Of a DNA stretch of 64,000 nt, positions 5,026 through 25,600 are shown one piece after another. The translations under genes were made by a program, and so were the position numbers. The DNA lies in contig OY762429.1 in the NCBI GenBank assembly GCA_963665655.1, positions 2,224,503 to 2,288,502 of the forward strand, in the 5' to 3' direction. Below the pieces are notes generated by a model. It did no database searches. It was not told the DNA's origin and saw nothing but the letters and a program-made list of their open reading frames with translations. The stretch comes from Terriglobia bacterium (GTDB lineage: Bacteria; Acidobacteriota; Terriglobia; Versatilivoradales; Versatilivoraceae). Each line of letters starts with the position of its first letter. Position 1 is the first letter of the stretch.

Positions 5026-5058
5026 TAATGCAACCAACCGGTTTAACAGAACATGGGC

Positions 5059-8312: not shown

Positions 8313-11300
8313 TGTCATTGAACGACCGTGTTCGGATAGCCCGGCGCTTCCTTAGATCGATCCGCATCGATTCTGATCTTGGCCATGTGGCGGCCCTTGA
8401 AGGATTCGTATGTCCGCAGTCGTCCTCCAACATTCTTTTGACAATGGCACGCCACGTCTCCCAAACGGGACAGGGCGCATTCACTTGGACTGGCCCCTAC
8501 GGCAGTGGTAAATCAAGCCTTGTCGTCGCCCTAAGTGCTTTATTAAACGGCGATACAGGACTGCAGGACGAAGCAGCAAAGATCTTCGGCCAGGAGTTGA
8601 CGAGGACGATCAGGGACACTTTGCCGATTGGAACAAAGGGGTGGCGTATTCTTCCCGTCGTCGCACGACGCGACGATCCCGTCACTGTCATCGGAGAATC
8701 CGTAAGGCGGACAGCGCTCGTATCCCGTCGGCCGCGTGGCGGCTGGACCGAAAGCAACCTGATCGCCACACTGACCAAAATCGCTAGCGAAAATCCCGAG
8801 ACACACGGCGGGCTCGTTCTTTTCATCGATGAGCTAGGCAAATTCCTAGAGGCAGCCGCCCGCGACGGCTCCGATATCTACATTCTCCAGCAGCTCGCCG
8901 AAGCGTCGTCACGGAGTCAGGGGCGGTTTCTTGTCGTGGGTGTGTTACACCAAGCGTTCGAGGAATACGCCCATCGCCTTTCATACGAGATGCGAGACGA
9001 GTGGGCGAAGATCCAGGGCCGTTTCATCGACCTTATTGTCAATACAGTAGGCGAAGAACAGATCGACCTGATCTCACGCGCGATCGAAAGCGATCATCAC
9101 CCAAAGAAGCCTAGCACCCTAGCAGCCACCGTCGCGAGCTTCGCATGTCGGGATCGTGCATCTGATGCGGGGCGCATAGCCTCCATTCTGGAAACATGCT
9201 GGCCGCTGCACCCTGTCGTAGCATGCCTTCTTGGACCGATTTCGCGTCGGCGTTTCGGGCAGAACCAACGAAGTATATTCGCCTTCTTGAACTCATCTGA
9301 GCCTCACGGGTTTCGAGACTTTCTGTGTCACGCTAGGGAAGGTGAACTATACGGCCCGGACCGGCTTTGGGACTACCTTCGCGCCAACTTAGAGCCATCC
9401 ATTTTAGCTTCACCCGATGGTCACCGGTGGGCGTTGGCAGCGGAAGCGCTTGAACGCTGCGAGGCAATCGGCGCCGACGCCGTTCACATCCGGTTGCTCA
9501 AAACAATTTCCGTCATTGACCTGTTCAAGGAGCGTTCGGGACTCGTCGCGAATTCGGCCTTGCTAGGCAGCTGTTTCCCTGAAACCTCAGCCAATGGGCT
9601 TGAAAGGGCGCTTTCGCAACTAGGTACATGGTCGTTCACGATCTTCAAGAAATTCCTCAACGCCCACACCATCTTTGCAGGGAGCGACTTCAACATAGAC
9701 GAGGCGGTCCGCACCGCACTCGACGAGATCGACGAGTTTGATTTAAAGGCGCTCAAGTCGCTCGCCGGGCTGCACCCGATCCTCGCCAAACGCCACTACC
9801 ACGACACAGGTGCGCTCAGATGGTTTGACGTGAACATCGTCTCAGTCAGCAGCCTTGTCGATTTCGTCGCCAAACATGAACCGGAGAACGGCGTGATCGG
9901 CCAGTTCCTTTTGGCGATTCCAACGGAGGGAGAAAGCCGCGACTACGCCGAGGACGTATGCCGTAAGGCCACGCGCCATAGTGACGCATGGGACATCATT
10001 GTAGGGATATCGAAAAGTTTCTGGGCTATAGTTCCACTAGCGCGAGAATTGTTTGCACTGGACAGCGTCAGCAACAATCACCCAGGGCTTGCGGGAGATT
10101 CCGTCGCGCGACGGGAAGTCTCCGCACGTCTCGTTACTCTACAAACATTGCTGGAAGCGGAACTGCGCAAGGCATTTGACAATGCGCTATGGTTCCAAAA
10201 AGAACACAGGCCCAAGCGGTTACGGCAGGCCGATCTGAACGGTATAGCTTCCGAGCTAGCGGATCGTCGTTTCGGTCAATCGCCGCGCCTACATAGCGAA
10301 TTGCTAAACCGCCAGAAACCATCAAGCAACGCAATCGCAGCTCAGAACGCCCTGTTACGGTGCATGGTAATGAATGAGGGTGCGCCGCGGCTTGGGATCG
10401 TGGGGTTTCCAGCCGAGGGTGGTCTGTTTGCTTCCATTCTGGAAGCCACAGGCCTGTACGTTACGGAGGAAGCAATTGGGCGTTACGTTTCACCGATAAC
10501 AAGCACTGATCCTTGCAACTTAGCCGCGATCTGGAAGAAGGCGATTAACCACGTCAAGGAATGTGCCAACCGCACGGTAACCTTCTCTGAGTTGTTCGAG
10601 CAGTGGTCTAAGCCGCCCTTCGGCGTGAAACAGGGCATGATGCCAGTCCTTGCGGTCGCCTTCGTGTTATCGCATCGCGACAAAATTGCGGTGTATCGTG
10701 ACGGTATTTTCAGGGCGAAATTCGACGACGTGGATGTCGACTATCTGGCCAAAGACCCGACGTTTGTCCAAGTGCGCTGGATGGACCTTAGCTATGTTGC
10801 GCGTCGACTATTGTCGGGACTGGCTCAAGTTGTCCGCGATCTTGACACGGCGAACCAGCTTATTCACCTTGAGCCCATCGATGTCGGACGTGGCCTTGTC
10901 GCAGTGTACGAGCGGCTTCCGAAATGGACCAAGAGGACGATGCGGCTATCTTCGAATGCCTTAAGAATACGCGAACTGTTCAAGCGCGCCCACGATCCAA
11001 ACCAGTTCCTGTTTAACGATCTTCCGGAAACACTCGGCGAGGACGTTTCGTTTGGAGACGAAAACGATCTGCGCCTTGTTATCGAAAGCGTTCGTGAGGG
11101 GCTGCATGAGCTAGTTGGAGCGTACACGTCAATGCTGCACCGCTTGCGGGAAATCATGTTGGCAGAGTTGCAGGTTCCTAACATTTCGCCCCGGTCTTTA
11201 CAGGAGTTGCGCGTCCGCGCTGAGAATATAAAACAGCTCTCCGGTGATTTTCGACTCGAGGCTTTCGTGGGCAGACTATCGCAGTTCGATGGTTCCGACG

Positions 11301-11698
11301 AGAGTGTGGAGGGTATAGCCAGTCTTGCCGCAAATAAGCCGGCCGGAGAATGGTTCGATCCCGACCTTGATCGGTGCGCCATAGAGCTCGCCGAAATGGC
11401 CCAAAAATTCCTACGTGCCGAGACGTATGCTCGCGTTAAAGGCCGTCCTGACAAACGGCAGGCGATAGCCGTTGTGATCGCCATGGACGGCCGACCTCAA
11501 CCGCTGTTGGAGGAATTCAACATCGCGGATACGGATCGCACTGCCGTCAAAGATCTAGTTGAGCGTGTCGCTAACACCATCGGACAGACCGCCACCAGCC
11601 AACGCGGAATAATTCTGGCAGCGCTAGCGGAACTCACGACGCGCTATATTCAGACAGCGTCGACTGGGCACAATAAGAAAGAAAGAGCAGCCTCATGA
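8312..11698 (+). CDS. sspC: SspC-like large P-loop ATPase
   Basis: Walker [17 protein letters not shown] and a Walker B-like LVLFIDELGKF. Start chosen at the ATG overlapping the sspB stop (TGATG); the ORF is open from 8195, so the start is uncertain. The 3-prime end overlaps sspD by 4 nt. Confidence 0.7.
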   Translation: MSLNDRVRIARRFLRSIRIDSDLGHVAALEGFVCPQSSSNILLTMARHVSQTGQGAFTWTGPYGSGKSSLVVALSALLNGDTGLQDEAAKIFGQELTRTIRDTLPIGTKGWRILPVVARRDDPVTVIGESVRRTALVSRRPRGGWTESNLIATLTKIASENPETHGGLVLFIDELGKFLEAAARDGSDIYILQQLAEASSRSQGRFLVVGVLHQAFEEYAHRLSYEMRDEWAKIQGRFIDLIVNTVGEEQIDLISRAIESDHHPKKPSTLAATVASFACRDRASDAGRIASILETCWPLHPVVACLLGPISRRRFGQNQRSIFAFLNSSEPHGFRDFLCHAREGELYGPDRLWDYLRANLEPSILASPDGHRWALAAEALERCEAIGADAVHIRLLKTISVIDLFKERSGLVANSALLGSCFPETSANGLERALSQLGTWSFTIFKKFLNAHTIFAGSDFNIDEAVRTALDEIDEFDLKALKSLAGLHPILAKRHYHDTGALRWFDVNIVSVSSLVDFVAKHEPENGVIGQFLLAIPTEGESRDYAEDVCRKATRHSDAWDIIVGISKSFWAIVPLARELFALDSVSNNHPGLAGDSVARREVSARLVTLQTLLEAELRKAFDNALWFQKEHRPKRLRQADLNGIASELADRRFGQSPRLHSELLNRQKPSSNAIAAQNALLRCMVMNEGAPRLGIVGFPAEGGLFASILEATGLYVTEEAIGRYVSPITSTDPCNLAAIWKKAINHVKECANRTVTFSELFEQWSKPPFGVKQGMMPVLAVAFVLSHRDKIAVYRDGIFRAKFDDVDVDYLAKDPTFVQVRWMDLSYVARRLLSGLAQVVRDLDTANQLIHLEPIDVGRGLVAVYERLPKWTKRTMRLSSNALRIRELFKRAHDPNQFLFNDLPETLGEDVSFGDENDLRLVIESVREGLHELVGAYTSMLHRLREIMLAELQVPNISPRSLQELRVRAENIKQLSGDFRLEAFVGRLSQFDGSDESVEGIASLAANKPAGEWFDPDLDRCAIELAEMAQKFLRAETYARVKGRPDKRQAIAVVIAMDGRPQPLLEEFNIADTDRTAVKDLVERVANTIGQTATSQRGIILAALAELTTRYIQTASTGHNKKERAAS

Positions 11699-12534
11699 CC
11701 AAACCTGCTGTGAAGCATGTGCTCGGGCTGTCCGGTGGGCGAGATAGCGCGGCGCTAGCCGTCTACATGCGGCAAAACCATCCCGCAATCGATATCCAGT
11801 TTTTTTTTACGGACACAGGCAAGGAACTGCCCGAAGTGTATGAATTTCTAGGGCGACTTGAAGGTTTTCTTGGTAAACCGATCTTGCGGCTGAATCCTGA
11901 CCGTGACTTCGATTTCTGGCTTAAGCAATACAACCACTTTCTGCCATCGCCGCAAACGCGCTGGTGCACACGGCAGCTTAAACTGCGCCCGTTTGAGCAC
12001 TGGCTTCGCCCATTGCTTGCCAATGGAACGATGATCTACAGTTATGTTGCTATTCGCAGTGACGAGCAGTTCCGTGAAGGGTACTCCTCTAAACATAGCA
12101 ATTTGGTTGTCAAACTGCCGTTCAAGCAGGCCGGGATCGATAAAGCTGGTGTGCTTGAAATCCTAGATGGAGCCGGGCTTGGCCTACCGAATTATTATTC
12201 TTGGAGAACGCGTAGCGGCTGCACTTTTTGTTTTTTCCAGCAGAAGATCGAATGGGTTCGGCTCAAACAGCAGCACCCGGAGGCGTTCGAGGAAGCCAAG
12301 GCGTACGAAAAAAACGCCGTTGAAAACGGTTCACCTTTTACATGGAGCCAAGGTGAATCTCTCCAGCAGCTTGAAAAGCCGGAGAGGATCGTGCAGATTA
12401 GGGCGGATCATGAACGACGTTTGGCCCGCATGCGCTCCAAAGCCAAGCCAAACCCGCTTAGGCCGGATAGCGAGCCTCTAGATATTGACGACTTGTACGG
12501 AAAAGCCAAAGTCTGCCTCGCATGCCACAAGTAG
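11695..12534 (+). CDS. sspD: SspD/DndC-family PAPS-reductase-like ATP pyrophosphatase (PP-loop)
   Basis: PP-loop motif LGLSGGRDSAALAV at the N-terminus, the PAPS reductase fold pattern, cysteine-containing C-terminal motifs (CTFC; CLACHK) and ATGA overlap with sspC. Confidence 0.8.
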   Translation: MTKPAVKHVLGLSGGRDSAALAVYMRQNHPAIDIQFFFTDTGKELPEVYEFLGRLEGFLGKPILRLNPDRDFDFWLKQYNHFLPSPQTRWCTRQLKLRPFEHWLRPLLANGTMIYSYVAIRSDEQFREGYSSKHSNLVVKLPFKQAGIDKAGVLEILDGAGLGLPNYYSWRTRSGCTFCFFQQKIEWVRLKQQHPEAFEEAKAYEKNAVENGSPFTWSQGESLQQLEKPERIVQIRADHERRLARMRSKAKPNPLRPDSEPLDIDDLYGKAKVCLACHK

Positions 12535-12552: not shown

Positions 12553-14028
12553 TCAACTAAGAGCGTGTAGGGACATCAGCCTTGGGTAACGCTTAGCGAT
12601 ATCGGGATGCCGTCGCAGTCGATCTTCAAGATCCCGAGCTTCCCACCATTCGGCTTGAAAGACCTTCTTCCTTCTCATACCGTCCAAATGATCCACAAGT
12701 GAAGAACTGATTCTCGGATGTGCGATCAGGAGAAATCCGTCCGCCTGATGGCGCTCAAGCGTGTCTCTGATGTCCTGAACATCGCTTTTGCCAATCGTCC
12801 GTTGTCGGGATTTCACCTGCGCTATGAAGCGCAAAACTCTTGTTCCTTTGAAACAGACTGCGGCACCACCCTTAGACGTGGAGTCTTTTGCTCCTGTCGA
12901 ATGGGGAGCGGGAACTTTCCTGTCAATCAGAATATCACGTCCGCTATCTCTGTCGTTGACCGTCCCAACCGGTTTCGCTTGAAGGACTCCTGGTTCCCTC
13001 CGAACCAAATCAACACAAAGGTCTTCAAAGTCGCCTGGAGACATTGGTGTCTTCCAGTCAATAATCGAATCCGCAAAAAATACGCTATTTTCCCCGCTTC
13101 GTCGCTCAAGTAGGTTTTTTCTTTCCCGTTCATAAACGACGCGTCCACATTCGCCGCGAATTGCAACAATTGTCTTATCTCCGATGAAGAGACAGTGACT
13201 ATCTAGTGGCATCACAACTACGTTCTCACACCCATCGGCAGTGAGTGAAAACAGTTTGTGCGCCTTCTTGGTTAAAGCGAATGGAATTGCATTCGGTATA
13301 CCATTTGCGAGGATCGCCAATGATTTTTCGCCCTTTACCATCTCGGGTGAATAGGGGCTCAAAGCGCCTCTCAGAAGAGCTAAACGGTTCTTCGGCATCC
13401 GAATGATTGTCACGCCGCGATCATGTGACGCGAAATACATCCAAACCGGAAATGTTCTTTTGCTGATCGTCACATCTTTCGGATTTCTCAGGTACCTTGT
13501 GACAGGAACCACCCATACCGGTTCTTCGGTTTTGTGTACCACGGTCAAATCTGGACGATTTTGCAATCGGCCTTGATCCCACTGGAACACATCGCTTAAG
13601 AGGTGAAAGGCGAATGCGGTCCATGCATTCATGGATTTTCTTGCGGCCTCGAATGTGTCATCCGAGATGTTCCAAGGGCATTGCTCAAATATCACGTAAC
13701 GTGCGCCGATCTCACCTGGAACAAAGCCGTGAGGCTCATCAATTAGCCGCACAGAACCAAGCCCAAATGCGCGTAGCACTCCACCCCAAATCAGCGACAA
13801 GACGTCATGCACGTCGGTCCGGTCGCCATCGAATTGAGCGCCAGATGTGGTGACTACACCCCAAAGCAGTAGCCGTTTCTCACAGTCTTGACCAGCCGGC
13901 AAGTCAAGCATACGAAAGGGTTCGTGTGTTAGACCTGAACATTCAAATACGGGAGGTTTGTATAGTGTCTCTTGACCGCCAACTGACAACGCGGAGGCCG
14001 CCCTTGCAAATATGCTGTCAGCTTCCAT
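12553..14028 (-). CDS. Hypothetical protein with a C-terminal Mrr-like restriction endonuclease (PD-(D/E)xK) domain
   Basis: The C-terminal segment RFIAQVKSRQRTIGKSDVQDI...ADGFLLIAHPRISS resembles the Mrr_cat core. Last gene of the minus-strand operon, abutting the upstream gene. Confidence 0.5.
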   Translation of the reverse strand: MEADSIFARAASALSVGGQETLYKPPVFECSGLTHEPFRMLDLPAGQDCEKRLLLWGVVTTSGAQFDGDRTDVHDVLSLIWGGVLRAFGLGSVRLIDEPHGFVPGEIGARYVIFEQCPWNISDDTFEAARKSMNAWTAFAFHLLSDVFQWDQGRLQNRPDLTVVHKTEEPVWVVPVTRYLRNPKDVTISKRTFPVWMYFASHDRGVTIIRMPKNRLALLRGALSPYSPEMVKGEKSLAILANGIPNAIPFALTKKAHKLFSLTADGCENVVVMPLDSHCLFIGDKTIVAIRGECGRVVYERERKNLLERRSGENSVFFADSIIDWKTPMSPGDFEDLCVDLVRREPGVLQAKPVGTVNDRDSGRDILIDRKVPAPHSTGAKDSTSKGGAAVCFKGTRVLRFIAQVKSRQRTIGKSDVQDIRDTLERHQADGFLLIAHPRISSSLVDHLDGMRRKKVFQAEWWEARDLEDRLRRHPDIAKRYPRLMSLHALS

Positions 14029-15930
14029 CTATTCTCCCTCTGCTGAGAGGATATCGGTGATTTTCATGACGAAAGGCGCCTTGCGGTAATTACTCTTTGC
14101 AGAAATACCTTCTTCGACTCCCTCATTTCGCACGAGGTAAAGGTACGTCCGATTGTCTTTACCCTTTTCCGCATTCCATTTTCCATTCTGTCGCGGAAGT
14201 TCCATCAATCCCCGTTCAAATCGCTCGAAGAAGTCAAGATCGGTCTTCATGGCTGAGAGGCTTTCCTTCGCCGACGTGCGTACATCCTCAAGCGGATAAC
14301 TCTGCATAGTTTCCCTCAACGCATCGCACACGTCTTCTCCAAGCACCAAATGGTCGACTCTCCTTCCCTGTGCGTCTCGACCCACGAAGCAGCTCGCGGT
14401 TTCCATCGATTCAACCGGAACTGAGCGCGTAGTCGCATCAGGGGAAACTACATATAAGGCAATTGAAACCGGAAACGTCGCGGGAGGTTTTGCAGGCTGA
14501 CCAATACGCCCCATATCAGCCAGCAACTTCTGCTGAAGTTCCGTGGCAAAGATCTCACGAATTCGACCTACGCGTACGTAACTGCTACTGTGCTGGAGCC
14601 CCTCGCAAAGTGTTGCAAGAGGGATTGTTTGTCGTTTTTTAAGATGCCACCTGATCCAATGCCTTGACCCATCTTGCGATTTGAAGATCGGCGTCTTGGT
14701 TACCGTAGCTCCATAAGACCAATCTTTCGCCACAAGGGGCATTAGAGTACCAGGCAGAACGAACACATTTTCTGTCTCAGCGCGCGCTAAATCGCACGCG
14801 GGTGTTGCAACGAGAAATACCTCACTTGTCAATTTCCCAGTTTCTGTGTTCTTGCGTCGCAAAACGTCCCCGTATTGAATTGTTGGCACGTCCTGACCGA
14901 CTGAGAGTTCCAACCTTCGGACGTGTTGAAAGATCATGCGATGCACAAGGTCTTGGAGATCAGATGAACCTGCCAAATGCGGAGCAGGGTACTGGCCCAA
15001 CTCAATCTTGTTTAATTCTTGAGCCGCGGATATTGTTCCAACTTGGGCTTCTATCTCGTGCTGTAAGACACGATCTGAAACATCCAAGAGATACTCGCCG
15101 AGCTTTTGCCCTTCGAAATCCAGCAAAAGTGTCCGAATCTGTGCCAAATCAGATAAATCTAGGCGGCGTAGAATTCTTACAAAGTTGTCTCGTGCCTGCT
15201 CCAAACCGTCATTCCACGATTGGACGAATGCAGCAACCCGTTTGGCATCTTCATAATGGTTTGCCAGCCGGGTCAGCAAAGTTTCGAGCCTGCCATCCTT
15301 CGTCAAATCAGCCTTGCTTGCGATCCGAAATGTTGAACCGAGAAGTCCCGCCTTATCACGAAAATCATTGCGCTTCTCCCAGAGCCGAGTGCTCCTTGAC
15401 ATCAATACTACTAGTGGCGGCTTGTGCGCACGATTCGTAACGAGTTGCGAGACACGGGAGACTGCACGGTCCATATCCTGTTCAGACTGATGAAAGCCGA
15501 GGAACAAATCGATGAAGATTAGGTCCGCCTCTCTCGCTCTCTCATCGAACTCCTTCCCCATCGTTGAACAGGTCAAGCCGAAACCTTCAAGGGCCACGAT
15601 AAGTGCCTCTAAGATTTTCCGCTCTGCCTCCTGGGTACTCTCGTAGTCTCTGAATAAATGCTCACGCGCTTCAGTTGGCAGCTTGTCCCGGTATTCCCAC
15701 AAGATACTGATAAACTCCTGAGATCCGATCAGATCGCCCATAGACGTGCGTTCATATCCCGGAAACAGGTTCGAAAGTAACGCGTTTCCGGAAGCGCCCA
15801 GGTCATCAAAGAAATTCGACCAATCGCCCTCGGTGAGTTCGTCAGGACGCGGTATATCGTCGAAGACGTCATCGATAACAACAGCGTTTTTGACAACCCT
15901 CTTTTTCAACAGCTCGCGCAGTTTCTTCAT
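14029..15930 (-). CDS. Hypothetical protein with receiver-domain-like N-terminal motifs
   Basis: N-terminal VVIDDVFDD, a later IFIDLFLG and PLVVLMSRS resemble REC beta1/beta3/beta4 elements, but the spacing is non-canonical. 4-nt overlap with the upstream histidine-kinase-like gene. The C-terminal 400 aa has no recognisable domain. Confidence 0.4.
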   Translation of the reverse strand: MKKLRELLKKRVVKNAVVIDDVFDDIPRPDELTEGDWSNFFDDLGASGNALLSNLFPGYERTSMGDLIGSQEFISILWEYRDKLPTEAREHLFRDYESTQEAERKILEALIVALEGFGLTCSTMGKEFDERAREADLIFIDLFLGFHQSEQDMDRAVSRVSQLVTNRAHKPPLVVLMSRSTRLWEKRNDFRDKAGLLGSTFRIASKADLTKDGRLETLLTRLANHYEDAKRVAAFVQSWNDGLEQARDNFVRILRRLDLSDLAQIRTLLLDFEGQKLGEYLLDVSDRVLQHEIEAQVGTISAAQELNKIELGQYPAPHLAGSSDLQDLVHRMIFQHVRRLELSVGQDVPTIQYGDVLRRKNTETGKLTSEVFLVATPACDLARAETENVFVLPGTLMPLVAKDWSYGATVTKTPIFKSQDGSRHWIRWHLKKRQTIPLATLCEGLQHSSSYVRVGRIREIFATELQQKLLADMGRIGQPAKPPATFPVSIALYVVSPDATTRSVPVESMETASCFVGRDAQGRRVDHLVLGEDVCDALRETMQSYPLEDVRTSAKESLSAMKTDLDFFERFERGLMELPRQNGKWNAEKGKDNRTYLYLVRNEGVEEGISAKSNYRKAPFVMKITDILSAEGE

Positions 15931-18356
15931 GAGACAACGACCTCGTCGGGCAGTTGCAGAATGAAACGATGGAGGCGGCCTGTTTCGGGATTGAACTCGT
16001 CCTGCAGTGTCAGGCTTCCGCCGTGGTATTCGGCACAGTCGCGGGCGATGTAGAGACCGAGACCCCTGCGTTTGGATTTTTCTTTCAGCGAAAAGAACGC
16101 CCGAAAGACCTTCTCTCGGTTCTCCTTCGCGACACCACGGCCATTATCTTCATAGTTGATCGTGAGGGGATCATCTTCCATCGCAATGGTGATAAACGGC
16201 TGGAAGCCCGGCTGGTGCTGTTGGCGAAGGTCCAGCCAATAAAGCGAGTTCGATATCAAGTTTTCGATTATCTGCACGATCATTCCCTTGACGGCGCGAA
16301 TACGAACAGCACGCTCAGGCACGATAACCTTCAGCTTCACATCATGACGTGCAAATTGCAGCTCGTGACCGCTCAAAATATCTCCAATCAGGCTACCCAA
16401 ATTGAACGTTTCCTTTCGTTGACGGCCCGAAACACTAAGCGGATCAAGAACACGAAGGCGCTTACTTACCGACTTCATCTCCGACCGCAACGAATTCAGC
16501 AATCCGTCTATCTGGGCCGGAACGTCTTCCTCACGTAAGGCCTCAAGTGCAGCAAGCGCATTTTCCGTCGATCGGGCTAGTTCATGGGCCACGACTTCGA
16601 CTAGCAGCCCAACACCCGCCATCTGCATCATCTGCCGATTCTCGCTCTCGACCTCGGCAATCCGCCTTTCAGCACGAGTGAAGAATTCTTTTATTTCAAA
16701 GAAGGTGTGCTGCAATTCATCAACAATACTCGCCGAGACTGGAGCTATGTGCCTTATTTTCTTTAGTGCCACGCTTGCCCTTTTTTCGAGGCTAGACACA
16801 TCCGTCTTGGCTTCCGTCATATCGATGGGCTGGCCTTTGTAACGCCGTTGCACGTCCTTCAAAAACTCACGGAGGTGGTATTGAATGGCAAATTGCAGCA
16901 GGCCAATGAACGCTTGCTGTTCGGGGCAAACACGCAAGCCTTCGCGGTTTGTCTGGTCAGTGAGTGGCGGGTTGCCTAGCCGTGAAATCTTAACACGGCC
17001 GCAGAATTGTGCTTTGTTGAGGAGGTACCCCATACTACCGAGCGCACGCCGGTCCAAGCCTAGCCAATCGTCGTCGTCGTCTCCGTAAGGCAAAATCCGG
17101 AATCCATCACGGAATAGTAGGATCCCGGACCAGCGCTTTTGCAGTTCTCGCACAACGTTCCGATTTCCAATGCTGTCGATGGCTCCCAAGCGCCGCCGAT
17201 TAAACCAATACGCCTCGAATTCGAATTCACCCAAATCGTCTAGTGCTGACGGCGGGATTTCTCTCGATGTGCCGGTAATCGCCCCTTCAAGGTCGGGCGG
17301 GGTGAATACCCGTTTTTCAACTTCACGCGGGTGATCGAATCCCAGATTCAAAGCTTCGTAGCTGCATTCCAGAGTTGGGCCGGAATCATTGCAGACATAA
17401 CGTCCCTTTACCGCTGCATGTCGATGCGCCAAGAGAAGATGATCCATGCGAGCTATAGAAACGCGCGCACCATTCCAAAATAAAGCAATTCGGGGTCTCC
17501 GCTTGGCATCAGCGAACGGATCGGTAAGCCGCGCAAAGTCATGCTCACCTAAGTATTTGACTCGCTCATATGTCCAGTCCGCTCCTAGAGCACCGATGAT
17601 CAACCGTGTGCCGCTCCAGTCTGGCTCCGGCTTCGCCGAACCGCACTCAGGTATGATGTCGATCTCATCAATCATCGCTTCTAGGTCGCCAAAAGCAGAC
17701 CAGTCAATTTTGAGCAAATTTAGGTATTTGTCCTGTTTCTCTGCCGTTTCGACCGTAAGCTTGTCGCCTAGGCGCATGGCGGAGAGTCGTCCGATCCCCT
17801 TTTCACCTAGATAGGGTGCGCGCTGTTTTTCTGCGTTAGGACTCGCGAGCGCGGCGTCTATCACGCGTTTCCGAGAAGCTGTTCCCACTACGAGATAGTT
17901 ATCGATCAAATCCTGATGCGACATCCCCGTGCCCCTGTCGGACACGATAATTCGATTTTCAACGGTGTACGCATTGTCAAGGGCCTGAACAAGAGATGCT
18001 GGATCTTCGGCTCTGTCGATCGCCCTGCGGAAACGATTCAGTGAGCTCTGTGGGGCAGACGGATTGAGAACATGCTCAACATTCACCTTCAGACCGTTGA
18101 TATCAACCGATCCGTCAGTTGCCCTCTGGCGGATCCTCAAATAGTCATTCCGCCGTAGGACGATTTCAAAATGAATTTCCACACCGTTCGTAGACTTAGC
18201 GTCAAACGCGTTCTTGATCAGCTCATAAAATGCAATAATATCCGAACTGATAAGTTCAGCCCCGAGTTCCAGAATTGTCCGGGCGCAAATCTTGAACAAC
18301 CTGTTTACCTCCCTTTGTTGTTCGGCTTGCTGGTCAACGGTCAGGCGATGATGCAA
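15927..18356 (-). CDS. Cytoplasmic GHKL ATPase - histidine kinase fusion protein
   Basis: N-terminal GHKL domain (N-box FYELIKNAFDA, G1 VSDRGTGMS, G2 GEKGIGRLS). Central H-box VVAHELARSTENALAAL. C-terminal HK catalytic domain (N-box ENLISNSLYW, G1 EDNGRGV, G2 GLGLYIARDCAEYHGGSL). No TM segments. Confidence 0.65.
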   Translation of the reverse strand: MHHRLTVDQQAEQQREVNRLFKICARTILELGAELISSDIIAFYELIKNAFDAKSTNGVEIHFEIVLRRNDYLRIRQRATDGSVDINGLKVNVEHVLNPSAPQSSLNRFRRAIDRAEDPASLVQALDNAYTVENRIIVSDRGTGMSHQDLIDNYLVVGTASRKRVIDAALASPNAEKQRAPYLGEKGIGRLSAMRLGDKLTVETAEKQDKYLNLLKIDWSAFGDLEAMIDEIDIIPECGSAKPEPDWSGTRLIIGALGADWTYERVKYLGEHDFARLTDPFADAKRRPRIALFWNGARVSIARMDHLLLAHRHAAVKGRYVCNDSGPTLECSYEALNLGFDHPREVEKRVFTPPDLEGAITGTSREIPPSALDDLGEFEFEAYWFNRRRLGAIDSIGNRNVVRELQKRWSGILLFRDGFRILPYGDDDDDWLGLDRRALGSMGYLLNKAQFCGRVKISRLGNPPLTDQTNREGLRVCPEQQAFIGLLQFAIQYHLREFLKDVQRRYKGQPIDMTEAKTDVSSLEKRASVALKKIRHIAPVSASIVDELQHTFFEIKEFFTRAERRIAEVESENRQMMQMAGVGLLVEVVAHELARSTENALAALEALREEDVPAQIDGLLNSLRSEMKSVSKRLRVLDPLSVSGRQRKETFNLGSLIGDILSGHELQFARHDVKLKVIVPERAVRIRAVKGMIVQIIENLISNSLYWLDLRQQHQPGFQPFITIAMEDDPLTINYEDNGRGVAKENREKVFRAFFSLKEKSKRRGLGLYIARDCAEYHGGSLTLQDEFNPETGRLHRFILQLPDEVVVS

Positions 18357-18412
18357 AGAAACGCGCCCGACTCCGATTTCCCCCAGCTACCAATCTGATC
18401 ATCCGTGCCGTC

Positions 18413-18877
18413 CTATGCTACCTTTGCATTCCTCAAAAGCGCGTCAATACAATCCGAGAGGTTCCAGATCGGCTCCGCATCACCGTCATTGAGCATTTCA
18501 ATGATCTTGGGTAGCCCAGCTACGGCAAGTCCGCTGGCGAGCACCATCATCCTTCTCGGTTCCGATACGATCTGCACATCGCCAGTCTTTCCGATCGCGA
18601 TCAGCATAAGGGTATGCACGCGCCACGGATCGCTGCCGAATATCGATCCGTCGATGATCTTCTTCGTTTTGAATTTAGAGGGGTCTCTAGGTTCCAGACC
18701 AAGCCGCGCTGCGACGCAGACAGACAGGAACCAGAGATCGACCATGCGCGGAAACGGACTCTGATCGATGATCGCATCGGCGCTCCTTTGGCAGTAACGA
18801 GTAAACGCCTCGTGGAATTCCTCTGGGACGTTAATGTCGATCGCCTGAAACGGATTGAAATAACGGTCCGCCATCAC
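18413..18877 (-). CDS. Hypothetical protein (154 aa)
   Basis: Tightly packed between the SMC-like ATPase (4-nt overlap) and the HK-like gene, with island-like low GC. No recognisable motif. Confidence 0.45.
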   Translation of the reverse strand: MMADRYFNPFQAIDINVPEEFHEAFTRYCQRSADAIIDQSPFPRMVDLWFLSVCVAARLGLEPRDPSKFKTKKIIDGSIFGSDPWRVHTLMLIAIGKTGDVQIVSEPRRMMVLASGLAVAGLPKIIEMLNDGDAEPIWNLSDCIDALLRNAKVA

Positions 18878-21030
18878 CTGTCTCCTATGATTGACGCTAT
18901 GTCTCTGTCGACCTGCGCATCGTCATGGCGTTGACAAAGTTGGCATTCCTTGCGGTGATTGCATTCACAGCGCAGAACCTTACGTTCAGCGACGCCCGGA
19001 TCGTTGACGAGCATTTTCGGGTAATGCGTCGTATTGGTCAGCGTGAAAACTACACCCGCCGTCTCATCGATGATGTCCTCGCACCCGGCGATTTCATCGT
19101 GAGTGAGAAAGAGCACGAGCTGTGTACTTTCGCGTACTGCCTTTCGCAGTATCGAGCGCTTGACGTACCCGCTTGTCATCCCGAGCGGCGTGTCGATGAC
19201 ATTGGGCGCTTCGACCTCGCTGACCCTCGTTAGCGCAAGGATGAAAGCCAGTGTCAGTGCGCGTCGCGATGCCCCGTTGAGGTCACGGTCCGGGTTGAGC
19301 ATCCTGTTGTTCGGCCCGTAGACGATTATGTCGAATTCCCGGCTGATTTCGGCGTGCCGGATAATCGCGCCCTGTTGCGGGTCCGCGCCGATCATTTCGA
19401 GAAAGATGTAATTCATCCGTTCGCTGACCTTGGCGAGTTCCTCATTCGCCATCCGCCTATACGCGCTCATCAATACCTTCATCACATCCTGAGTGACTTC
19501 AAGTTCGGCCAGTATGCGTGCGCCTTTCTTCTGCTCGCGCAGCAGTCGGTCGCGTGTGTTCTCAAGGATTTCGCGTTCACGGTGGAGCCCTGTGAGCTGT
19601 GTTTCGATTGCAGCACGCTTTGCCAGACACCGGTCGCGCTGGTCCTTGTATTGCCGCAGGGTTACCCGCAGGCCTTGGATGTCTGTGTTCGGCAATGCGT
19701 CGAGTTGTAGTTCCAGCCCTCGGTATTTGCGTCCCGCTTCATCGCGAACGATCTGGATGCCATCCCGACGTTCGACGACCTTCTTGTACTCTTCTAGCCA
19801 TTCGCTAGTCGCCGCATTGCCAGCACCTTGCAACGGCTTAGCACTGTAAAACAGGTCAGTAATAATCTCTTGAATTTCGTCGGCGCGCTGGCTGTCATCG
19901 ATCAGCTTCTGAATATAGGCGCGACGCTTGTCACCTTGCAGGTCTCCCGGTTCAAGCGTTTCACCACAAATGCAGAGTTCGGCTGAGAGGCGCTCTTGCA
20001 AGACCGGGATCGTCGTGTTAGGGATCTTGCCCTGATCGTGTAGTTCTTCGAGTTTCTCGTAGGCCTTGCCGAGCAGGGGCGCAAGCAGATCGGTCGCGAT
20101 TGAGCGGCTACGGAAAAGGGCCGAATGTTCCTTGTTGGCTGTAGCGAGCTGGTAATCGAGTTGCCCTATATCTTGCCTGGTGGTTTCAAGCTCCTTCCGT
20201 AGCTTCACCTTGTCACCTTTTTGAAGGGCGGCTGCGATTTTGCGGTCGGTTTCGTTCACCTTCTCTTCGAATGCTGCGAATTGCTGTTTCACATCCTCGA
20301 GATCGTCTTCCAGTTTGTTCCAGTCCTCATTAATTTCTTCGAGGCGTGAAGCGGTGCTGTTCAGCTCGCTGTCACTTCCGACCTGTTTCGCGTTCCTGTT
20401 CACTTCTGCTGCAGATTTGCGGACATGCTTAATCGCATCGCCGATCACACCGACGCCGAGAAGGGAACGGATAGCGCGCTGAACGCGCTCGCGCTTGGTC
20501 GAAAGTGCTGCATCGGCTTCGATGAAGCTGAGCGCGCGGTCGCCATCCGTAAAGAAGACCTCACGCAGTTCCGGCGGTAGTTCGTCGTTGATAAGGGATT
20601 CGGGTGCAACGATGGGAGCTGCGCCGCTGTCGTTCAGCGCAAACAGCTTCACCGTTGATGCTGAACGGTAAGATCTGCTTTCCACGTCTTCGAAAGCGGA
20701 ACGAACGAGGCGATAGTGCCGCCGCGTTTTGCGTAGTTTACCGGCCAATCTCCGGTAAGTCTTTAACTCGAACTCCAACGTCGCAGTGATTGGAACCCGT
20801 TTGCGCTCATTCGCATCCCAGTCGATAGGATGCAAGCGAAAACCATCGCCCTTGCCCGGCAAGGCAACGTCGCCGTAGAGCGCCCATTGCAGCGCATGAA
20901 GGATCGTCGTCTTACCTGATTCGTTCGCCGCACGTATGATCGTGAGGTTCCTCTCGGCATCGCTGGCGAATTCAAGCTCCAGATTCCGGAGCAGCCGGAA
21001 ATTTTCAAATGAGGCGCGAAGTAGCTTCAT
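18874..21030 (-). CDS. SMC/RecF/SbcC-like AAA ATPase with a long coiled-coil (DndD-like architecture)
   Basis: N-terminal Walker A NESGKTTILHALQWALYGD, a long heptad-rich middle region, a C-terminal signature/Walker B region (LVLFLTHDE) and terminal Cys cluster CECNHRKECQLC. Confidence 0.6.
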   Translation of the reverse strand: MKLLRASFENFRLLRNLELEFASDAERNLTIIRAANESGKTTILHALQWALYGDVALPGKGDGFRLHPIDWDANERKRVPITATLEFELKTYRRLAGKLRKTRRHYRLVRSAFEDVESRSYRSASTVKLFALNDSGAAPIVAPESLINDELPPELREVFFTDGDRALSFIEADAALSTKRERVQRAIRSLLGVGVIGDAIKHVRKSAAEVNRNAKQVGSDSELNSTASRLEEINEDWNKLEDDLEDVKQQFAAFEEKVNETDRKIAAALQKGDKVKLRKELETTRQDIGQLDYQLATANKEHSALFRSRSIATDLLAPLLGKAYEKLEELHDQGKIPNTTIPVLQERLSAELCICGETLEPGDLQGDKRRAYIQKLIDDSQRADEIQEIITDLFYSAKPLQGAGNAATSEWLEEYKKVVERRDGIQIVRDEAGRKYRGLELQLDALPNTDIQGLRVTLRQYKDQRDRCLAKRAAIETQLTGLHREREILENTRDRLLREQKKGARILAELEVTQDVMKVLMSAYRRMANEELAKVSERMNYIFLEMIGADPQQGAIIRHAEISREFDIIVYGPNNRMLNPDRDLNGASRRALTLAFILALTRVSEVEAPNVIDTPLGMTSGYVKRSILRKAVRESTQLVLFLTHDEIAGCEDIIDETAGVVFTLTNTTHYPKMLVNDPGVAERKVLRCECNHRKECQLCQRHDDAQVDRDIASIIGDR

Positions 21031-21041
21031 GTGTCCAATTC

Positions 21042-21272
21042 CTACTTACCCGCATTTTGGGCTCGCTGGTCCGCCAGGAAGTGCGCAGCGGCGTTGCATT
21101 TGTCATTGATTTTCTTCTGGATAGTCGTCGCAGAAACGCGATGACCTCGTTCGTATTCAAAAATGTCTGAAATCACGTCGATAATCTCTTCCCTGTAGCC
21201 ATTGCAGCGTTCTTCGATCTCTGCGCATTCCTCAAGGATGATCGAGATTATCTTCTTGTCATTCAGTGGCAT
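21042..21272 (-). CDS. Small hypothetical protein (76 aa)
   Basis: Fits exactly between the helicase and the ATPase genes, with gaps of 18 and 12 nt. No recognisable domain. Confidence 0.4.
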   Translation of the reverse strand: MPLNDKKIISIILEECAEIEERCNGYREEIIDVISDIFEYERGHRVSATTIQKKINDKCNAAAHFLADQRAQNAGK

Positions 21273-21289
21273 CTTGCAATCCTCCAGCC

Positions 21290-23542
21290 CTACAAGTAGG
21301 CAGCATCCACCATCTTGTCAATTGTTGCCAACGGCCCGTCCGGACGTCCAGCATTGCCAGCAAGCCGCGCGAATTCCTGTGCGCGGCGCAACTCGGAGCG
21401 CACGAGGCTACGTGCATCGGGGTCGAGCCCGTCTTCCATCTTGGGTGGTAACGCCAGTAAGTCATGAATGACACTAAACGTCTTTCCGATCGCACTGCAG
21501 GTTCGCAGTAATCGTCCGCGCCGCTGCACCCATTGCCGCTCCACAGTAGTGCTCGCGAGAATGAACGCCTTGCATATTTGCGGAATGTTCACGCCTTCAT
21601 CGAGTACGCGCTTGGCCGTCAGAACCTGAATCTCGCCGTCTTGGAAAGAGCCAATAATTCGTTTTGTCTGGTCTCTGCTCGCGGTTTCTTTCGCTGTTAG
21701 CTGATGGAACAAAATGTTCTTGTCCCGTAGCAGTCGGTTCACATTGTCGAGCTGTTCTGGTCCTTTATCCGAAGCATACACAAGAGTATGCCGCAACCCG
21801 CTGGCATCCTTTTCTTCAAGCAGGGACTTCAGCATTGCCACTTTGCCTGAGGCAGTTTCCAGTAGCGCCCGCCGATCGCGTAGCAGCTTGGCGAGGTACT
21901 CGTCTGGCTTGCCGTCCTTTTCGCGCCAAGCGTTCTGCTTGATCTTACCTGTCATAAAGAACCACTGGTCCATTTCACTTTCAGTCAGATAGACCGGGTG
22001 CAAGTAGTAGTCGTATTCGACAAGGCAGCGCCCGATTGCTTCTTCAAGCGTAAAGCGAAAAACTACCGGACCAAAAAATCCTAACAGCGCTTCCGTTCCC
22101 TTTTCGTCATATTGGCGGCTCGGTGTTGCTGACAGACCGATCCTATGCTCGAAAAACTCCGGCGGTCCTCCGGTGAATGAAACGCGCCCGAGATTGTGAG
22201 CTTCATCTGCGATTAGCAGCCTCGTGCACTCGAATCCATCTACAACATCGAGAAATTCTGGTGTGCACAGAGTATCGTGGCTGACGACGACTGCCTCGAC
22301 CTGCGACAGACCAGTGCGCAAGCGCCGTTTGATTTTGTGAAGCTCTCTCGCACGGTTGTTAGCGCCACCTGCCGTCGTAAGATTGATTGGTTTCAGTCCG
22401 AAGGGAACGATTTCATCGCACCACTGTTCGATCAAGGGTACATAGGGCGCAGCAATGACAATCAGAAGGGTATTGCACCTTTGATAAAGGCGGTGTGCAG
22501 CGATCATCGAGGTGATGGTTTTCCCAGAGCCAGTCGCCATCTCCAGGATGCCGCGAAATCCTGCCTTGCACCAAGCATTGACCGCCTTGCCCTGGTGTTC
22601 AAACGGACCGTCTTCGTATCGCAGAAATCTCGGTATCGCAAAGTCTTTCTTCAGTGCGGGAACGGACCCGTAAGATTCGGGGGGTTCCGCAACCCTCGTG
22701 GCGCGACAGTAGAGCGTGCGAAGTTCGTCTTCGGTCGGTGGGGTCTCCGCGCTGTAGGTACGCAGCAGGCGCAGCTTCACGGCCTCCGGCATCGCGATTA
22801 CTATGCAATTATCATCCCTGTTCTCCCACAAGCCTCCGAATTTATAGCTCAGCTTGTCGGTAATGTAGCGCTGGTTCGGGTCCTGCCAAGAACGCGAGAT
22901 TGCTATTTGTTCTATGTTTTTGCGAATACCAGCATAGGTTACATTGCTCGATCCGTGAGCCGCGACGATATCGGTACCATTTTCGAACAACCAAACCTTC
23001 GGATGAAAGAGCGCTTCTTTCATCAGGGCAACCTTGATTTCGATACGATGCTCACGTACTAGCCAGGTCAAACATTTCAACGTGTGGCGCTGCAGCAGAT
23101 CTTCCGTGACTGTCAGCTCTTTCAAAATCCTATCGGCGACTGTTTCCGGGGAGTGTAAACCGTCCCTGATGGCGGCCTGGTCTTCGGTCCGTAGCACTGG
23201 ACTGATGATCAGCCTGAAGCTACTCTCCGAACAGGCAATATAGGTTGCAAGGCCAGGAGCAAGCGAGGCTAGCACTTCACTTGAGAAAAAACCAACCATA
23301 CACGCAACCCTTTCCGCTGCCTGGAAGCTGGGAATCAACACTTCTTCGGCGAGCGGATCGCCCGGGAGTATGTAAAGTGGTCTGGCTTCGTCCAGCGACT
23401 GCAAACTCCTCACTTGTGTCAATGTGTTCGGGTCTCGCCGCACTGGCGGTTCATTTGTCATATGAATTCCCTTCATTCGTCGTTGTCGAATTGACCGACT
23501 CGATCGCGCGTAATGAAGTGCCGGTTGCAATGCCGGCACCAT
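21290..23542 (-). CDS. PLD-like (HKD-variant) nuclease domain fused to an SF2 DEAH-box helicase
   Basis: N-terminal HPKVWLFE...AAHGSSN resembles an HxK...GSxN PLD motif. Helicase motif I EMATGSGKT, motif II LLIADEAHNLG and a C-terminal QRRGRLLR (motif VI). The start is uncertain: alternative Mets at 23476 and 23461. Confidence 0.65.
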   Translation of the reverse strand: MVPALQPALHYARSSRSIRQRRMKGIHMTNEPPVRRDPNTLTQVRSLQSLDEARPLYILPGDPLAEEVLIPSFQAAERVACMVGFFSSEVLASLAPGLATYIACSESSFRLIISPVLRTEDQAAIRDGLHSPETVADRILKELTVTEDLLQRHTLKCLTWLVREHRIEIKVALMKEALFHPKVWLFENGTDIVAAHGSSNVTYAGIRKNIEQIAISRSWQDPNQRYITDKLSYKFGGLWENRDDNCIVIAMPEAVKLRLLRTYSAETPPTEDELRTLYCRATRVAEPPESYGSVPALKKDFAIPRFLRYEDGPFEHQGKAVNAWCKAGFRGILEMATGSGKTITSMIAAHRLYQRCNTLLIVIAAPYVPLIEQWCDEIVPFGLKPINLTTAGGANNRARELHKIKRRLRTGLSQVEAVVVSHDTLCTPEFLDVVDGFECTRLLIADEAHNLGRVSFTGGPPEFFEHRIGLSATPSRQYDEKGTEALLGFFGPVVFRFTLEEAIGRCLVEYDYYLHPVYLTESEMDQWFFMTGKIKQNAWREKDGKPDEYLAKLLRDRRALLETASGKVAMLKSLLEEKDASGLRHTLVYASDKGPEQLDNVNRLLRDKNILFHQLTAKETASRDQTKRIIGSFQDGEIQVLTAKRVLDEGVNIPQICKAFILASTTVERQWVQRRGRLLRTCSAIGKTFSVIHDLLALPPKMEDGLDPDARSLVRSELRRAQEFARLAGNAGRPDGPLATIDKMVDAAYL

Positions 23543-23799
23543 ACCAGGTAATGAATTCCCATAAAGCTCGCCAGATCAATCAACCCACAAATTGGTTAAG
23601 CGCTTCCATGTTCAAACCGCTTGGGGACGTGCTTAACTGTCTCGCTAGTTTCAAAAAAAGAGTGTTGACTCCTATGAAAGTCATCGCCTACGGCGATTGC
23701 TACGCACAACCCAAGTTGGGGCGGATGCTCCGCAAAAGGGGGGTTAACGTTTTGTTTGAGGGCATGGACGGGGGGCACCACCGCTGTGGTTCCACTAAA

Positions 23800-24513
23800 T
23801 CAGCGCCCTAATAGTGTTCTAAGTTTCTCTATTACGTGCCATTGTCTGGATCGCCTTAGATAACCCGGATGGTACGTTCGGAAGGATTTCCTATGCTCTT
23901 TGTCGTGGTTCAAACGGTTCAAGCAAGCTAAGCAACGCAAATTGAATCCCTTGACCTGTTCGAACTCCACACAGGGGAAGGTTGCTTTGATTCGGTTATC
24001 ATACCAATGCCCAGTGAAGAGAATGACAACATCTGGTTTTGTTACGCACAGTTCGTACTGGCGAAGACAGGTCGAGCAGATTAGCTCCTCAAGCTCATGG
24101 TGAGGCTTCTGCCCATTGTCATCAACTTTGATCAGGTTTGACCAAAGGAATCCCCGCGGTGGTCCGTCGGGATTCAGAAAATTGTAGACCTCATAAGCCG
24201 CTTGCCAGAAAGGCGATTTCATTTTCCTTTTCCCCATCTCGAAACGACGATACTGGTCGAGGAGAGCCTCAATACCATCTTCTGGGTGGCCCCACCCGTT
24301 CGTTTGCTGGCCGACCACCATCAACTTCACGCTTGCTTCGTGGTACGCGTGGGGAACATGGATAAGCAATGGTCCTCCAAGATTCCGTTCCTTAGAAAGC
24401 TGGGACCAAACATCATTATCAAGAACCGTCGAATACATCTCGAAGAGCTTACGATTCATGTCGAACATTCGGTCCCCTTTATTGGCGTCCCAGGTGCTCA
24501 GCGTGCGGACCAC
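23800..24513 (-). CDS. Hypothetical protein (237 aa), first gene of the minus-strand island operon
   Basis: Coding-like ORF in the low-GC island, preceded by a ~330-bp AT-rich non-coding region. No recognisable domain. Confidence 0.4.
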   Translation of the reverse strand: MVRTLSTWDANKGDRMFDMNRKLFEMYSTVLDNDVWSQLSKERNLGGPLLIHVPHAYHEASVKLMVVGQQTNGWGHPEDGIEALLDQYRRFEMGKRKMKSPFWQAAYEVYNFLNPDGPPRGFLWSNLIKVDDNGQKPHHELEELICSTCLRQYELCVTKPDVVILFTGHWYDNRIKATFPCVEFEQVKGFNLRCLACLNRLNHDKEHRKSFRTYHPGYLRRSRQWHVIEKLRTLLGR

Positions 24514-24847: not shown

Positions 24848-25600
24848 TCACGGCCACTTCCAATTGACTTTCGCTTCGGACCGCCGCACGGTGAGGGCGC
24901 GTAGGTCCGGGGCCGCGGTCTAATACCCGCGGCCGGCCTTTGGCCCAAAGAGCCTTGATTTCCTGGACGAGTGCCCCTGACGGATCGTTGCACAGGTCAC
25001 CCGTCGGGATCCCACGGTCGCAGCCTGGGGATCCAGCGCGGCACGTTGGCCTTGTAGCACCGATAGCTGTCTCCGAATCGCCTTTCCAGGCCCGGCTCCT
25101 CAAACCTCAGGAAATAGAGCATCTTGAGCAGGAAAAAGACCGCCATCCACCCGGCCAGGTGCCACGAGCCCAAGAGCAGCGATTCGGCGCCGAGGAGGAG
25201 AAGCACGCTCGTAATAATAGGATTTCTGACGTGGCGGTAGGGGCCGTAAACAACCAGTCTGGTTGGTGGAGCCCAGGGCGCGGGAGTCCCCCTGCCGACC
25301 TTCACAAACAGCTTGGCGCACCAGGTAGACAAAACCAGGCCGGTGGTCGCCAAGGCAATGCCGCTCCAGAATCGGACCTGTTCCGGCCCTGCCGGAGCAA
25401 TGGCGCCCGGCCTATCGGCCACCAACCACAGGATCGCGCCGGGAATGTACACGAGGATGGTGCCCGGAAGGATGAGGATGTGCTTGACCCACTGCAGAAT
25501 CATTCCCGTCCCAACGGCCAGACTGCTCTCAGGGCCCTTTCCAATTGACCTCCGCGTCGGGCCGCCGCAGGTAGAAGGCGCGCAGGTCCGGGGGCGCGGT
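24848..25600. repeat. Imperfect direct repeat (~63 bp, ~84% identity): one copy at 24848-24910, the other at 25535-25600 (the 3-prime end of tsaB)
   Basis: TTCCAATTGAC followed by about 52 further alignable bases with ~10 mismatches in both copies. The second copy encodes the TsaB C-terminus; the first lies at the right edge of the low-GC island. Confidence 0.7.
24997..25503 (-). CDS. Isoprenylcysteine carboxyl methyltransferase / phospholipid methyltransferase family membrane protein (paralog of the gene at 543..1076)
   Basis: YRHVRNPIITS motif and a C-terminal EEPGLERRFGDSYRCYKANVPRWIP, with hydrophobic helices. High GC. Confidence 0.6.
   Translation of the reverse strand: MILQWVKHILILPGTILVYIPGAILWLVADRPGAIAPAGPEQVRFWSGIALATTGLVLSTWCAKLFVKVGRGTPAPWAPPTRLVVYGPYRHVRNPIITSVLLLLGAESLLLGSWHLAGWMAVFFLLKMLYFLRFEEPGLERRFGDSYRCYKANVPRWIPRLRPWDPDG

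Follow-up and report, generated by a model that had tools for sequence, protein, structure and literature searches.

A histidine kinase/receiver gene pair and a PbeABCD cassette beside the Ssp phosphorothioation genes of a Terriglobia bacterium: probable parts of a composite defence island

Approximately 84% of the clusters of sspBCD, genes for the phosphorothioate (PT) modification of DNA, have neither SspE nor SspFGH nearby (PMC8092258). What else may partner the modification genes is the question raised by a locus of a Terriglobia bacterium (GenBank assembly GCA_963665655.1, contig OY762429.1, positions 2,224,503 to 2,288,502; this whole stretch of 64,000 nucleotides is referred to as the window). 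A low-GC island at approximately 6–24 kb of the window (GC 0.50–0.56, against 0.62–0.67 in the flanks) holds in its left part the full Ssp modification set, sspA, sspB, sspC and sspD, as identified with PADLOC, and eight minus-strand open reading frames (ORFs) run convergent to sspD. An earlier note on this DNA had taken these eight for one undescribed system of seven or eight genes. The ORFs and the low-GC island exist, and its domain calls (a PLD-helicase, an SMC-like ATPase, a GHKL-histidine kinase, receiver-like motifs and an Mrr-like nuclease) are correct; the single system does not stand, since four of the genes are the known PbeABCD cassette (PMC6459918; PMC10853773), the Mrr-like gene occurs in 7 of 59 related loci and a 237-aa gene is unrelated. 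The region is probably a composite PT defence island around SspABCD, with PbeABCD, a kinase/receiver pair and an optional Mrr-type nuclease. The pair, whose domain identities are clear and whose catalytic residues are intact, is described here as a PT-linked variant of a predicted two-component module associated with restriction-modification (R-M), with a function that we infer, and PbeABCD is described in a new Ssp context.

A kinase/receiver pair beside the ssp genes

The sixth and seventh of the eight genes encode a histidine kinase and a receiver-domain protein. Their surroundings were compared in a sample of at least 59 loci, with one genome per species from a very wide range of phyla, which was seeded by two peptide patterns and analysed by tblastn with the window proteins together with all-against-all clustering of ORFs. 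The two genes are adjacent in 58–59 of the 59 loci, with the kinase directly upstream, and they overlap by 4 nt in 45 of 58 loci and by 1 nt in a further 8; genes 6 and 7 are a translationally coupled pair. At least one of sspB, sspC and sspD lies within 10 kb of the pair in 50 of the 59 loci (sspD in 49, sspC in 48 and sspB in 39), which bears out the link to PT modification that the earlier note had proposed; homologues of the kinase and of the 633-aa receiver protein do co-occur, both with each other and with ssp genes, as its reading required. Nine loci lack an sspBCD match. In three of them SspF/G/H immediately precede the kinase (PADLOC E down to 0), in five the contig breaks off within a few kb, and the ninth is decayed.

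The most frequent layout, seen in 22 loci, is sspB-sspC-sspD-kinase-receiver on one strand without Pbe genes. The distance from the end of sspD to the kinase is 3–206 nt in 16 same-strand loci, and such short spacers indicate co-transcription. The layout of the window, pbeABCD-kinase-receiver convergent to sspDCB, was found in 12 loci, four of them with an Mrr gene; the full set of Pbe genes, pair and Mrr gene thus recurs outside the window, in only four other loci (L006, L010, L014 and L019). The same Ssp linkage is found, down to 24–27% identity, on RefSeq plasmids of Agrobacterium, Rhizorhabdus and Ensifer, where the pair is annotated as 'sensor histidine kinase' or 'ATP-binding protein' plus 'hypothetical protein' and has Ssp PAPS-reductase, ATP-binding, DUF4007 and class-V aminotransferase genes as its neighbours. 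This near-obligate place beside ssp genes argues for a functional tie of the pair to PT modification. What constantly accompanies the ssp genes is the kinase/receiver pair; the modules added around it (Pbe, SspFGH, Mrr, HNH-STAND and PLD) are interchangeable. Identities co-vary between loci (Spearman 0.81 for kinase against receiver and 0.60 with SspC), consistent with a cognate pair that may now and then have been moved between Ssp subtypes. The 633-aa family is large: the scored candidates fall into 731 clusters at 90% identity, and at 50% identity the family has 955 representatives with E up to 1e-3; the copy of the pair in Rahnella had no match in E. coli genomes at the DNA level.

The kinase is a cytosolic fusion of two parts, a GHKL ATPase head that is MORC/SMCHD1-like and a full histidine-kinase core. 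Its ORF extends to position 18356, giving an 809-aa form; the start is most likely the TTG at 18299, which follows a AAGGGAGG ribosome-binding site and gives the 790-aa form found in all homologues, with a 113-nt spacer after the 154-aa gene. There are two complete ATP-binding modules. In the 809-aa numbering, the Bergerat motifs lie at aa 44–53, 140–145 and 184–189, the H-box AHELARS, in which the histidine is followed by an acidic residue, at 590–596, and the N, G1 and G2 boxes of the CA domain at 698–704, 737–741 and 765–769. The Pfam families HATPase_c_3 (53.4 bits) and HATPase_c (66.5 bits) are both matched above their cut-offs; HEF_HK (PF19191) scores 22.6 bits, just below its cut-off of 24.1, and is found on 1 of 120 close homologues in precomputed annotation.

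The receiver protein begins with a REC domain (aa 1 to approximately 225) that carries a helical insert of about 95 aa, followed by a helical middle and a beta-rich C-terminal output region. The (beta-alpha)5 fold, the acidic pair D20-D21, the phospho-acceptor D141, S178 and K206 of a canonical receiver are all present, with the key residues at the expected strand ends and at least 95% conserved among 53 sequences of 31–70% identity. The receiver-like motifs of the earlier note are therefore real, and kinase and receiver together hold all that is needed for His-to-Asp phosphotransfer. The protein itself had no Pfam, NCBIfam, PADLOC or PDB sequence match, and membership of Response_reg_2 (PF19192) or Response_reg (PF00072) was rejected, as 0 of 37 family members matched in hmmscan (27 of them scanned at E up to 1, and a further 10, distant ones, at E up to 0.1).

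The output half (approximately 345–633) has its own conserved residues, namely G354-D355, P377-x-C379-D380, W404, W428, R456, R458 and G474-R475-x-G477. Two identities were considered for it and set aside. For a CcdB/MazF-like toxin, Foldseek listed CcdB with a probability of 0.98 but with E-values of 0.03–0.08 and TM-scores of 0.51–0.57, and hhalign against the MazF/PemK toxins (MazF, Kid, ChpB and NdoA, both as single sequences and as a profile) gave an alignment that was colinear over 95 columns but without significance (P about 0.02, probability about 2%). The other, a Cys-His protease, was rejected, as H318 and H330 vary among the 53 sequences. A CcdB/MazF-like barrel is accordingly kept as a lead only.

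Some copies of the pair are damaged. One or other of its genes is split, duplicated in fragments or interrupted by inserted genes in L014, L025, L026, L027, L044, L052 and L061, and L014 and L044 share the same two clusters of inserted ORFs, which suggests insertion-sequence activity and decay in some genomes. On three Agrobacterium and Ensifer plasmids (L063 2523–7538, L064 1–2352 and L065 1–2770), the Ssp-kinase-receiver island adjoins genes for a site-specific integrase, VapC, VapB and an RHE_PE00001-family protein; these common neighbours suggest a shared mobile scaffold.

The PbeABCD cassette and the other genes of the island

Genes 2–5 (750, 76, 718 and 154 aa; Table 1) are PbeABCD, a known PT-dependent defence cassette, which lies here beside SspABCD and not beside Dnd: the DndA-like SspA excepted, no Dnd genes adjoin the cassette. 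Together with DndCDEA, PbeABCD has been shown experimentally to bring about a PT-dependent halt of virus replication (PMC6459918). The likely true start of pbeA is the ATG at 23461 (MTNEPP). Its product has ResIII, DEAD, Helicase_C and PLDc_2 domains in Pfam and the motifs HxK (aa 180–187), GSSN (197–202), GSGKT (337–342) and DEAH (446–449), and matches TIGR04095 with an E-value of 2.2e-107 and 359.9 bits, under the equivalog cut-off of 600 bits. PbeC further matches TIGR03185 DndD (E 5.8e-28) and AAA_23, with a Walker A motif GKTT at aa 39–42 and a hook, C353-I-C355, of the 'CxC' type by which Rakesh et al. define this class of ATPase (PMC10853773).

The two small proteins are putatively assigned as PbeB and PbeD by size and position. 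In the type system PbeB has 66 aa and is encoded between pbeA and pbeC, and PbeD has 152 aa (PMC6459918). The 76-aa protein is 44–80% conserved in Pbe-bearing loci. Neither of the two gave an HMM or PDB sequence match, the 76-aa protein not even with E allowed up to 10. The 154-aa protein, whose ORF overlaps the pbeC stop, is 55–86% conserved in the same loci, and both genes are kept in related loci wherever PbeA and PbeC occur. Searches of PADLOC and PDB sequences for a DndE or PbeD match to the 154-aa protein, with the single sequence and with a 9-sequence profile, were empty, so that it was rejected as a demonstrable DndE homologue and is kept by its position as a putative PbeD.

The spacer of approximately 113 nt between pbeD and the kinase (window 18300–18412) has the same length in Pbe-bearing loci (L001, L003, L004, L006 and others; about 7517–7632), with a strong AAGGGAGG ribosome-binding site at its end. 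An internal promoter or a regulatory site may lie within it, through which the pair would be expressed without dependence on pbeABCD. When the region was scanned for consensus promoters and terminators, matches were at chance level only. The earlier note had all eight genes packed within 18 nt of one another. This stands for most of the junctions, with 4-nt overlaps and gaps of 0–17 nt; it does not for the junction from the 154-aa gene to the kinase (56–113 nt), which is still among the six tight junctions of the seven, nor for the loose seventh, where at least 257 nt separate the 237-aa ORF from pbeA.

Table 1. Features of the island, in window coordinates
Feature	Coordinates	Strand	Basis
sspA, cysteine desulfurase, divergent from sspB	6027..7199	-	PADLOC SspA E 5.8e-122
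sspB (DUF4007)	7353..8312	+	PADLOC SspB E 2e-107
sspC, BrxC-like ATPase	8309..11698	+	PADLOC SspC 1321 bits, alignment begins at residue 42
sspD, PAPS-reductase-like	11695..12534	+	PADLOC SspD E 5.9e-135
Mrr-like PD-(D/E)xK nuclease, 491 aa, abuts receiver gene	12553..14028	-	Pfam Mrr_cat
Receiver-domain protein, 633 aa	14029..15930	-	
Histidine kinase with MORC/SMCHD1-like GHKL head, 790 aa	15927..18299	-	
pbeD-position protein, 154 aa, putative DndE cognate	18413..18877	-	Size and position
pbeC, CxC-type ABC ATPase related to DndD, 718 aa	18874..21030	-	PADLOC PbeC E 7.9e-51
pbeB-position small protein, 76 aa	21042..21272	-	Position between pbeA and pbeC
pbeA, HKD/PLD nuclease-like domain and SF2 helicase	21290..23542	-	PADLOC PbeA E 3.6e-191, residues 62-731
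237-aa ORF upstream of pbeA	23800..24513	-	No Pfam, PADLOC, NCBIfam or PDB match

The Mrr-like nuclease is an optional accessory. Its Mrr_cat domain (PF04471; 24.7 bits against a cut-off of 21, residues 329–437) has the D...QxK motif at aa 363–369 (GRDILID) and 403–407 (AQVK), and its N-terminal 320 aa have no assigned domain. Counting the window, the gene is present in 7 of the 59 loci, and in the other six a full-length homologue directly follows the receiver gene. SspFGH stands alongside the pair in 11 loci, and the remaining extras vary between PbeABCD, an HNH-STAND-TPR protein, a trio of helicase, MzaB-like GHKL and PLD proteins, and an 812-aa protein. The HNH-STAND-TPR protein, of approximately 980 aa with HNH, AAA_16/STAND and TPR domains, directly follows the receiver gene in five loci (L004 11924–14857, L011, L033, L046 and L055); it had no PADLOC model match and is a candidate for a further plug-in effector. 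The trio, consisting of a PbeA-like helicase, a 610-aa MzaB-like HATPase_c_3 protein and a PLD/HKD protein of approximately 305 aa, takes the place of PbeABCD in L033, L037, L041 and L042 (for example L033 6579–7496; L032 2196–4028). The protein of approximately 812 aa, with no Pfam or PADLOC match, adjoins the pair in L011 (15028–17487), L017, L018, L032, L034 and L051, on one side or the other: immediately before the kinase, or downstream of the receiver gene. A protein of approximately 490 aa with a weak Methyltransf_23 match (E 5.6e-4) lies between sspH and the kinase in L036 (5906–7396), L058 (6060–7505) and L043, and in L040 (461–6832, Terriglobales) a 2123-aa protein with a PD-T4-6/mad6/PglW-like Ser/Thr kinase domain is encoded directly upstream of the histidine kinase.

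As for the remainder of the island, the sspC ORF opens at 8195, and its likely start is the GTG at 8309 or the ATG at 8312, overlapping the sspB stop; SspC homologues have 1129–1131 aa. None of the 59 related loci has a counterpart of the 237-aa ORF, which is an orphan cargo gene of the island, or possibly no real gene. Two ORFs of 252 and 189 aa between the dsbA-like gene and sspA had no matches. No tRNA gene and no integrase was found at the island borders, and the flanking host genes encode a T2SS-G-like protein, a DsbA-like thioredoxin and a PEMT-family methyltransferase (window 2650–5900 and 24997–25503).

A proposed phosphorelay and the explanations that compete with it

MORC, MutL and SMCHD1 engage DNA in an ATP-dependent manner. 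In the mechanism proposed here, SspABCD would mark host DNA with PT, whilst the MORC-like head of the kinase would engage DNA with ATP and report either unmodified or foreign DNA or a disturbance, be it of the Ssp machinery or one related to infection. This signal would lead to autophosphorylation on the H-box histidine and to transfer to D141 of the receiver, whose C-terminal domain may be the effector itself (many loci have no other nuclease) or may license neighbouring nucleases. On this model the pair could be the missing partner of many 'orphan' SspBCD clusters: a phosphorelay immune module in which a GHKL clamp senses non-PT DNA and the output of the receiver is toxic or restrictive, maybe through a CcdB/MazF-like barrel. 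This fuller proposal is tentative, being possible and well short of probable.

Several points count against the defence reading of the pair. Domain logic and genomic context are our grounds for inferring DNA and PT sensing, phosphotransfer, output activity and any defence phenotype. No significant structural or sequence relative was found for the receiver protein's output half, so that the roles of effector and regulator are not told apart. The AlphaFold2 model of the kinase is mediocre (pLDDT 64.7), and details of its middle region are unreliable. As to the linkage, the 59-locus sample was seeded by two peptide patterns, and the pair has been exchanged between distant SspC subtypes, the receiver of L002 being 57% identical where SspC is 25% identical; the coupling of pair and ssp genes may therefore be loose, and defence islands do gather unrelated systems.

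The main competing explanation is that the pair regulates PT modification, through the activity or expression of SspBCD, in a DndB-like role, or as an epigenetic or stress coupling, and has no part in restriction or abortive infection. In its favour, two-component systems mostly act as regulators, the receiver protein showed no recognisable nuclease motif, and 22 loci have the pair, encoded in the sspBCD operon, as the one conserved partner of sspBCD; a paper on A. baumannii also mentions 'a role in epigenetics' as a possibility for an Ssp system that has a histidine kinase nearby (PMC12421847). However, the receiver protein has no recognisable DNA-binding output either, the head of the kinase is MORC/MutL-like, a type tied to R-M systems (PMC8011034), and nucleases recur beside the pair (PbeA, Mrr, HNH-STAND, PLD and SspFGH), which makes a purely regulatory pair rather unlikely.

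It is less likely again, and on balance improbable, that SspABCD, PbeABCD, the pair and the Mrr-like nuclease are independent systems brought together by hitch-hiking in the island. The modules do occur in many combinations, any one of Pbe, SspFGH and Mrr can be absent, the island itself is an insertion of low GC, PbeAC frequently occur without PT genes (PMC6459918) and related kinase/receiver pairs adjoin C5-methylases and not PT genes (PMC8011034). Ssp systems, though, are present in about 2% of genomes (PMC12421847), and yet the pair adjoins ssp genes in 50 of 59 loci and SspFGH in three more, the rest being truncated or decayed, across many phyla, down to 24% identity and with the short sspD-kinase spacers that indicate co-transcription; it is this depth and breadth of linkage that makes independent co-location less likely. 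That all seven or eight genes form one obligate, undescribed multi-protein system is very improbable indeed, for the tight packing from pbeA to the Mrr gene, the same junction of approximately 113 nt in about 18 loci and the four further full sets stand against at least 22 loci with the pair and sspBCD alone, a 237-aa gene unique to the window and a PbeABCD already named and experimentally tested as a four-gene system.

The composite island, with the pair tied to PT modification, is therefore the reading retained here. A conserved pair beside ssp genes across many phyla is a testable candidate partner for the clusters that have neither SspE nor SspFGH, whether as an effector or as a controller of interchangeable nucleases.

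Comparison with known systems

The three distal genes were compared with SspFGH, SspE, DndFGH and MADS, and all four identities were rejected as there was no PADLOC match (the library includes mad6/7/8 models, which matched nothing in the window). The view of the earlier note that the genes are not SspE, SspFGH or DndFGH is thus upheld, and the SspF/G/H models demonstrably work, since for genes that flank the pair in L036 and L060 they give E-values of 1e-75 to 0. The SspE architecture of a DUF262/ParB-like N-terminus with a DUF1524 HNH domain was absent, by PADLOC and Pfam, from the eight proteins and from the other tested ORFs of the island. For DndFGH, MADS, Lamassu, Gabija and Hachiman, PADLOC likewise gave no identity: the only matches among the eight proteins were PbeA, PbeC and generic ATPase or helicase tails, and no model matched the pair. 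With SspE and SspFGH, the restriction partners known for SspABCD (PMC8092258), the pair shares its genomic niche beside sspBCD. It has no sequence or domain kinship with either; SspF is a Walker-A protein and SspH, of about 1750 aa, has an FtsK/HerA-like C-terminus, and neither of these contains a kinase or a receiver.

The cassette resembles the PbeABCD type system in its four genes of the same order (HKD/PLD-SF2 helicase, ~70-aa protein, CxC ABC ATPase, ~150-aa protein, the two small ones being putative counterparts) beside PT genes. It differs in that PbeABCD as first defined accompanies DndCDEA, which makes double-strand PT, whereas here it accompanies SspABCD, which makes single-strand PT, and in that a kinase/receiver pair follows it in the same direction of transcription. 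The CxC ABC ATPase-DndE systems were re-annotated by Rakesh, Aravind and Krishnan in 2024, who noted Pbe-type systems with other modification genes or with none (PMC10853773). A description of PbeABCD paired with SspABCD was not found in the open-access literature; the window shows that PbeABCD, described with Dnd, is recruited to Ssp systems too.

Detocs (Rousset et al. 2023) reportedly uses a phosphorelay from histidine kinase to receiver for immunity in place of transcription control, with the effector fused to the receiver. Three genes reportedly make up the system, one of them for an Hpt buffer protein, and its effector is a nucleosidase; it is not known to have a MORC-like head or a link to DNA modification. 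Domains of the Hpt and nucleosidase type were not found here. Prokaryotic MORC and paraMORC GHKL ATPases were reportedly placed in R-M contexts by Iyer, Abhiman and Aravind in 2008, and structures of the eukaryotic MORC2/3 and SMCHD1 belong to the same comparison. The head found in the window differs from them in being fused to a full histidine-kinase transmitter, not to nuclease or chromatin-reader domains, and the pair would tie MORC-type ATPases to phosphotransfer signalling.

The closest described relative of the pair is the two-component-system-like ('TCS-like') pair HEF_HK/Response_reg_2 with a paraMORC head, a computational prediction by Bellieny-Rabelo et al. 2021 (PMC8011034). That paper and a passing remark on A. 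baumannii were all that the open-access literature yielded on an Ssp-linked kinase. The earlier note had not recognised the combination of kinase, nuclease, helicase and SMC components from any described system; this holds in that the pair is unnamed and no open-access paper linking it to PT was found, and it fails in that a pair with a paraMORC head beside R-M genes had been predicted in 2021 (PMC8011034). Both pairs consist of a soluble HATPase_c_3, DHp and HATPase_c protein beside a receiver-like protein with long loop insertions, and in both the genes are strictly linked (91.6% in PMC8011034) and lie beside DNA-modification or restriction genes. Unlike the window pair, HEF_HK/Response_reg_2 associates with C5-cytosine methylases, Vsr and type II R-M, and its description makes no mention of PT, Dnd, Ssp, PAPS or DUF4007 (PMC8011034); the neighbours of window-type pairs are sspA/B/C/D, SspFGH and Pbe, and enrichment of C5-methylase, Vsr or type II R-M genes was not found around them. 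The window kinase also falls under the HEF_HK cut-off, and the 633-aa family lies outside Response_reg_2. The pair would give a first functional context to these predicted R-M-associated phosphorelays. PT-linked and C5-methylase-linked pairs, taken together, mirror the CxC-DndE systems, which pair either with PT or with cytosine methylation (Rakesh et al.; PMC10853773).

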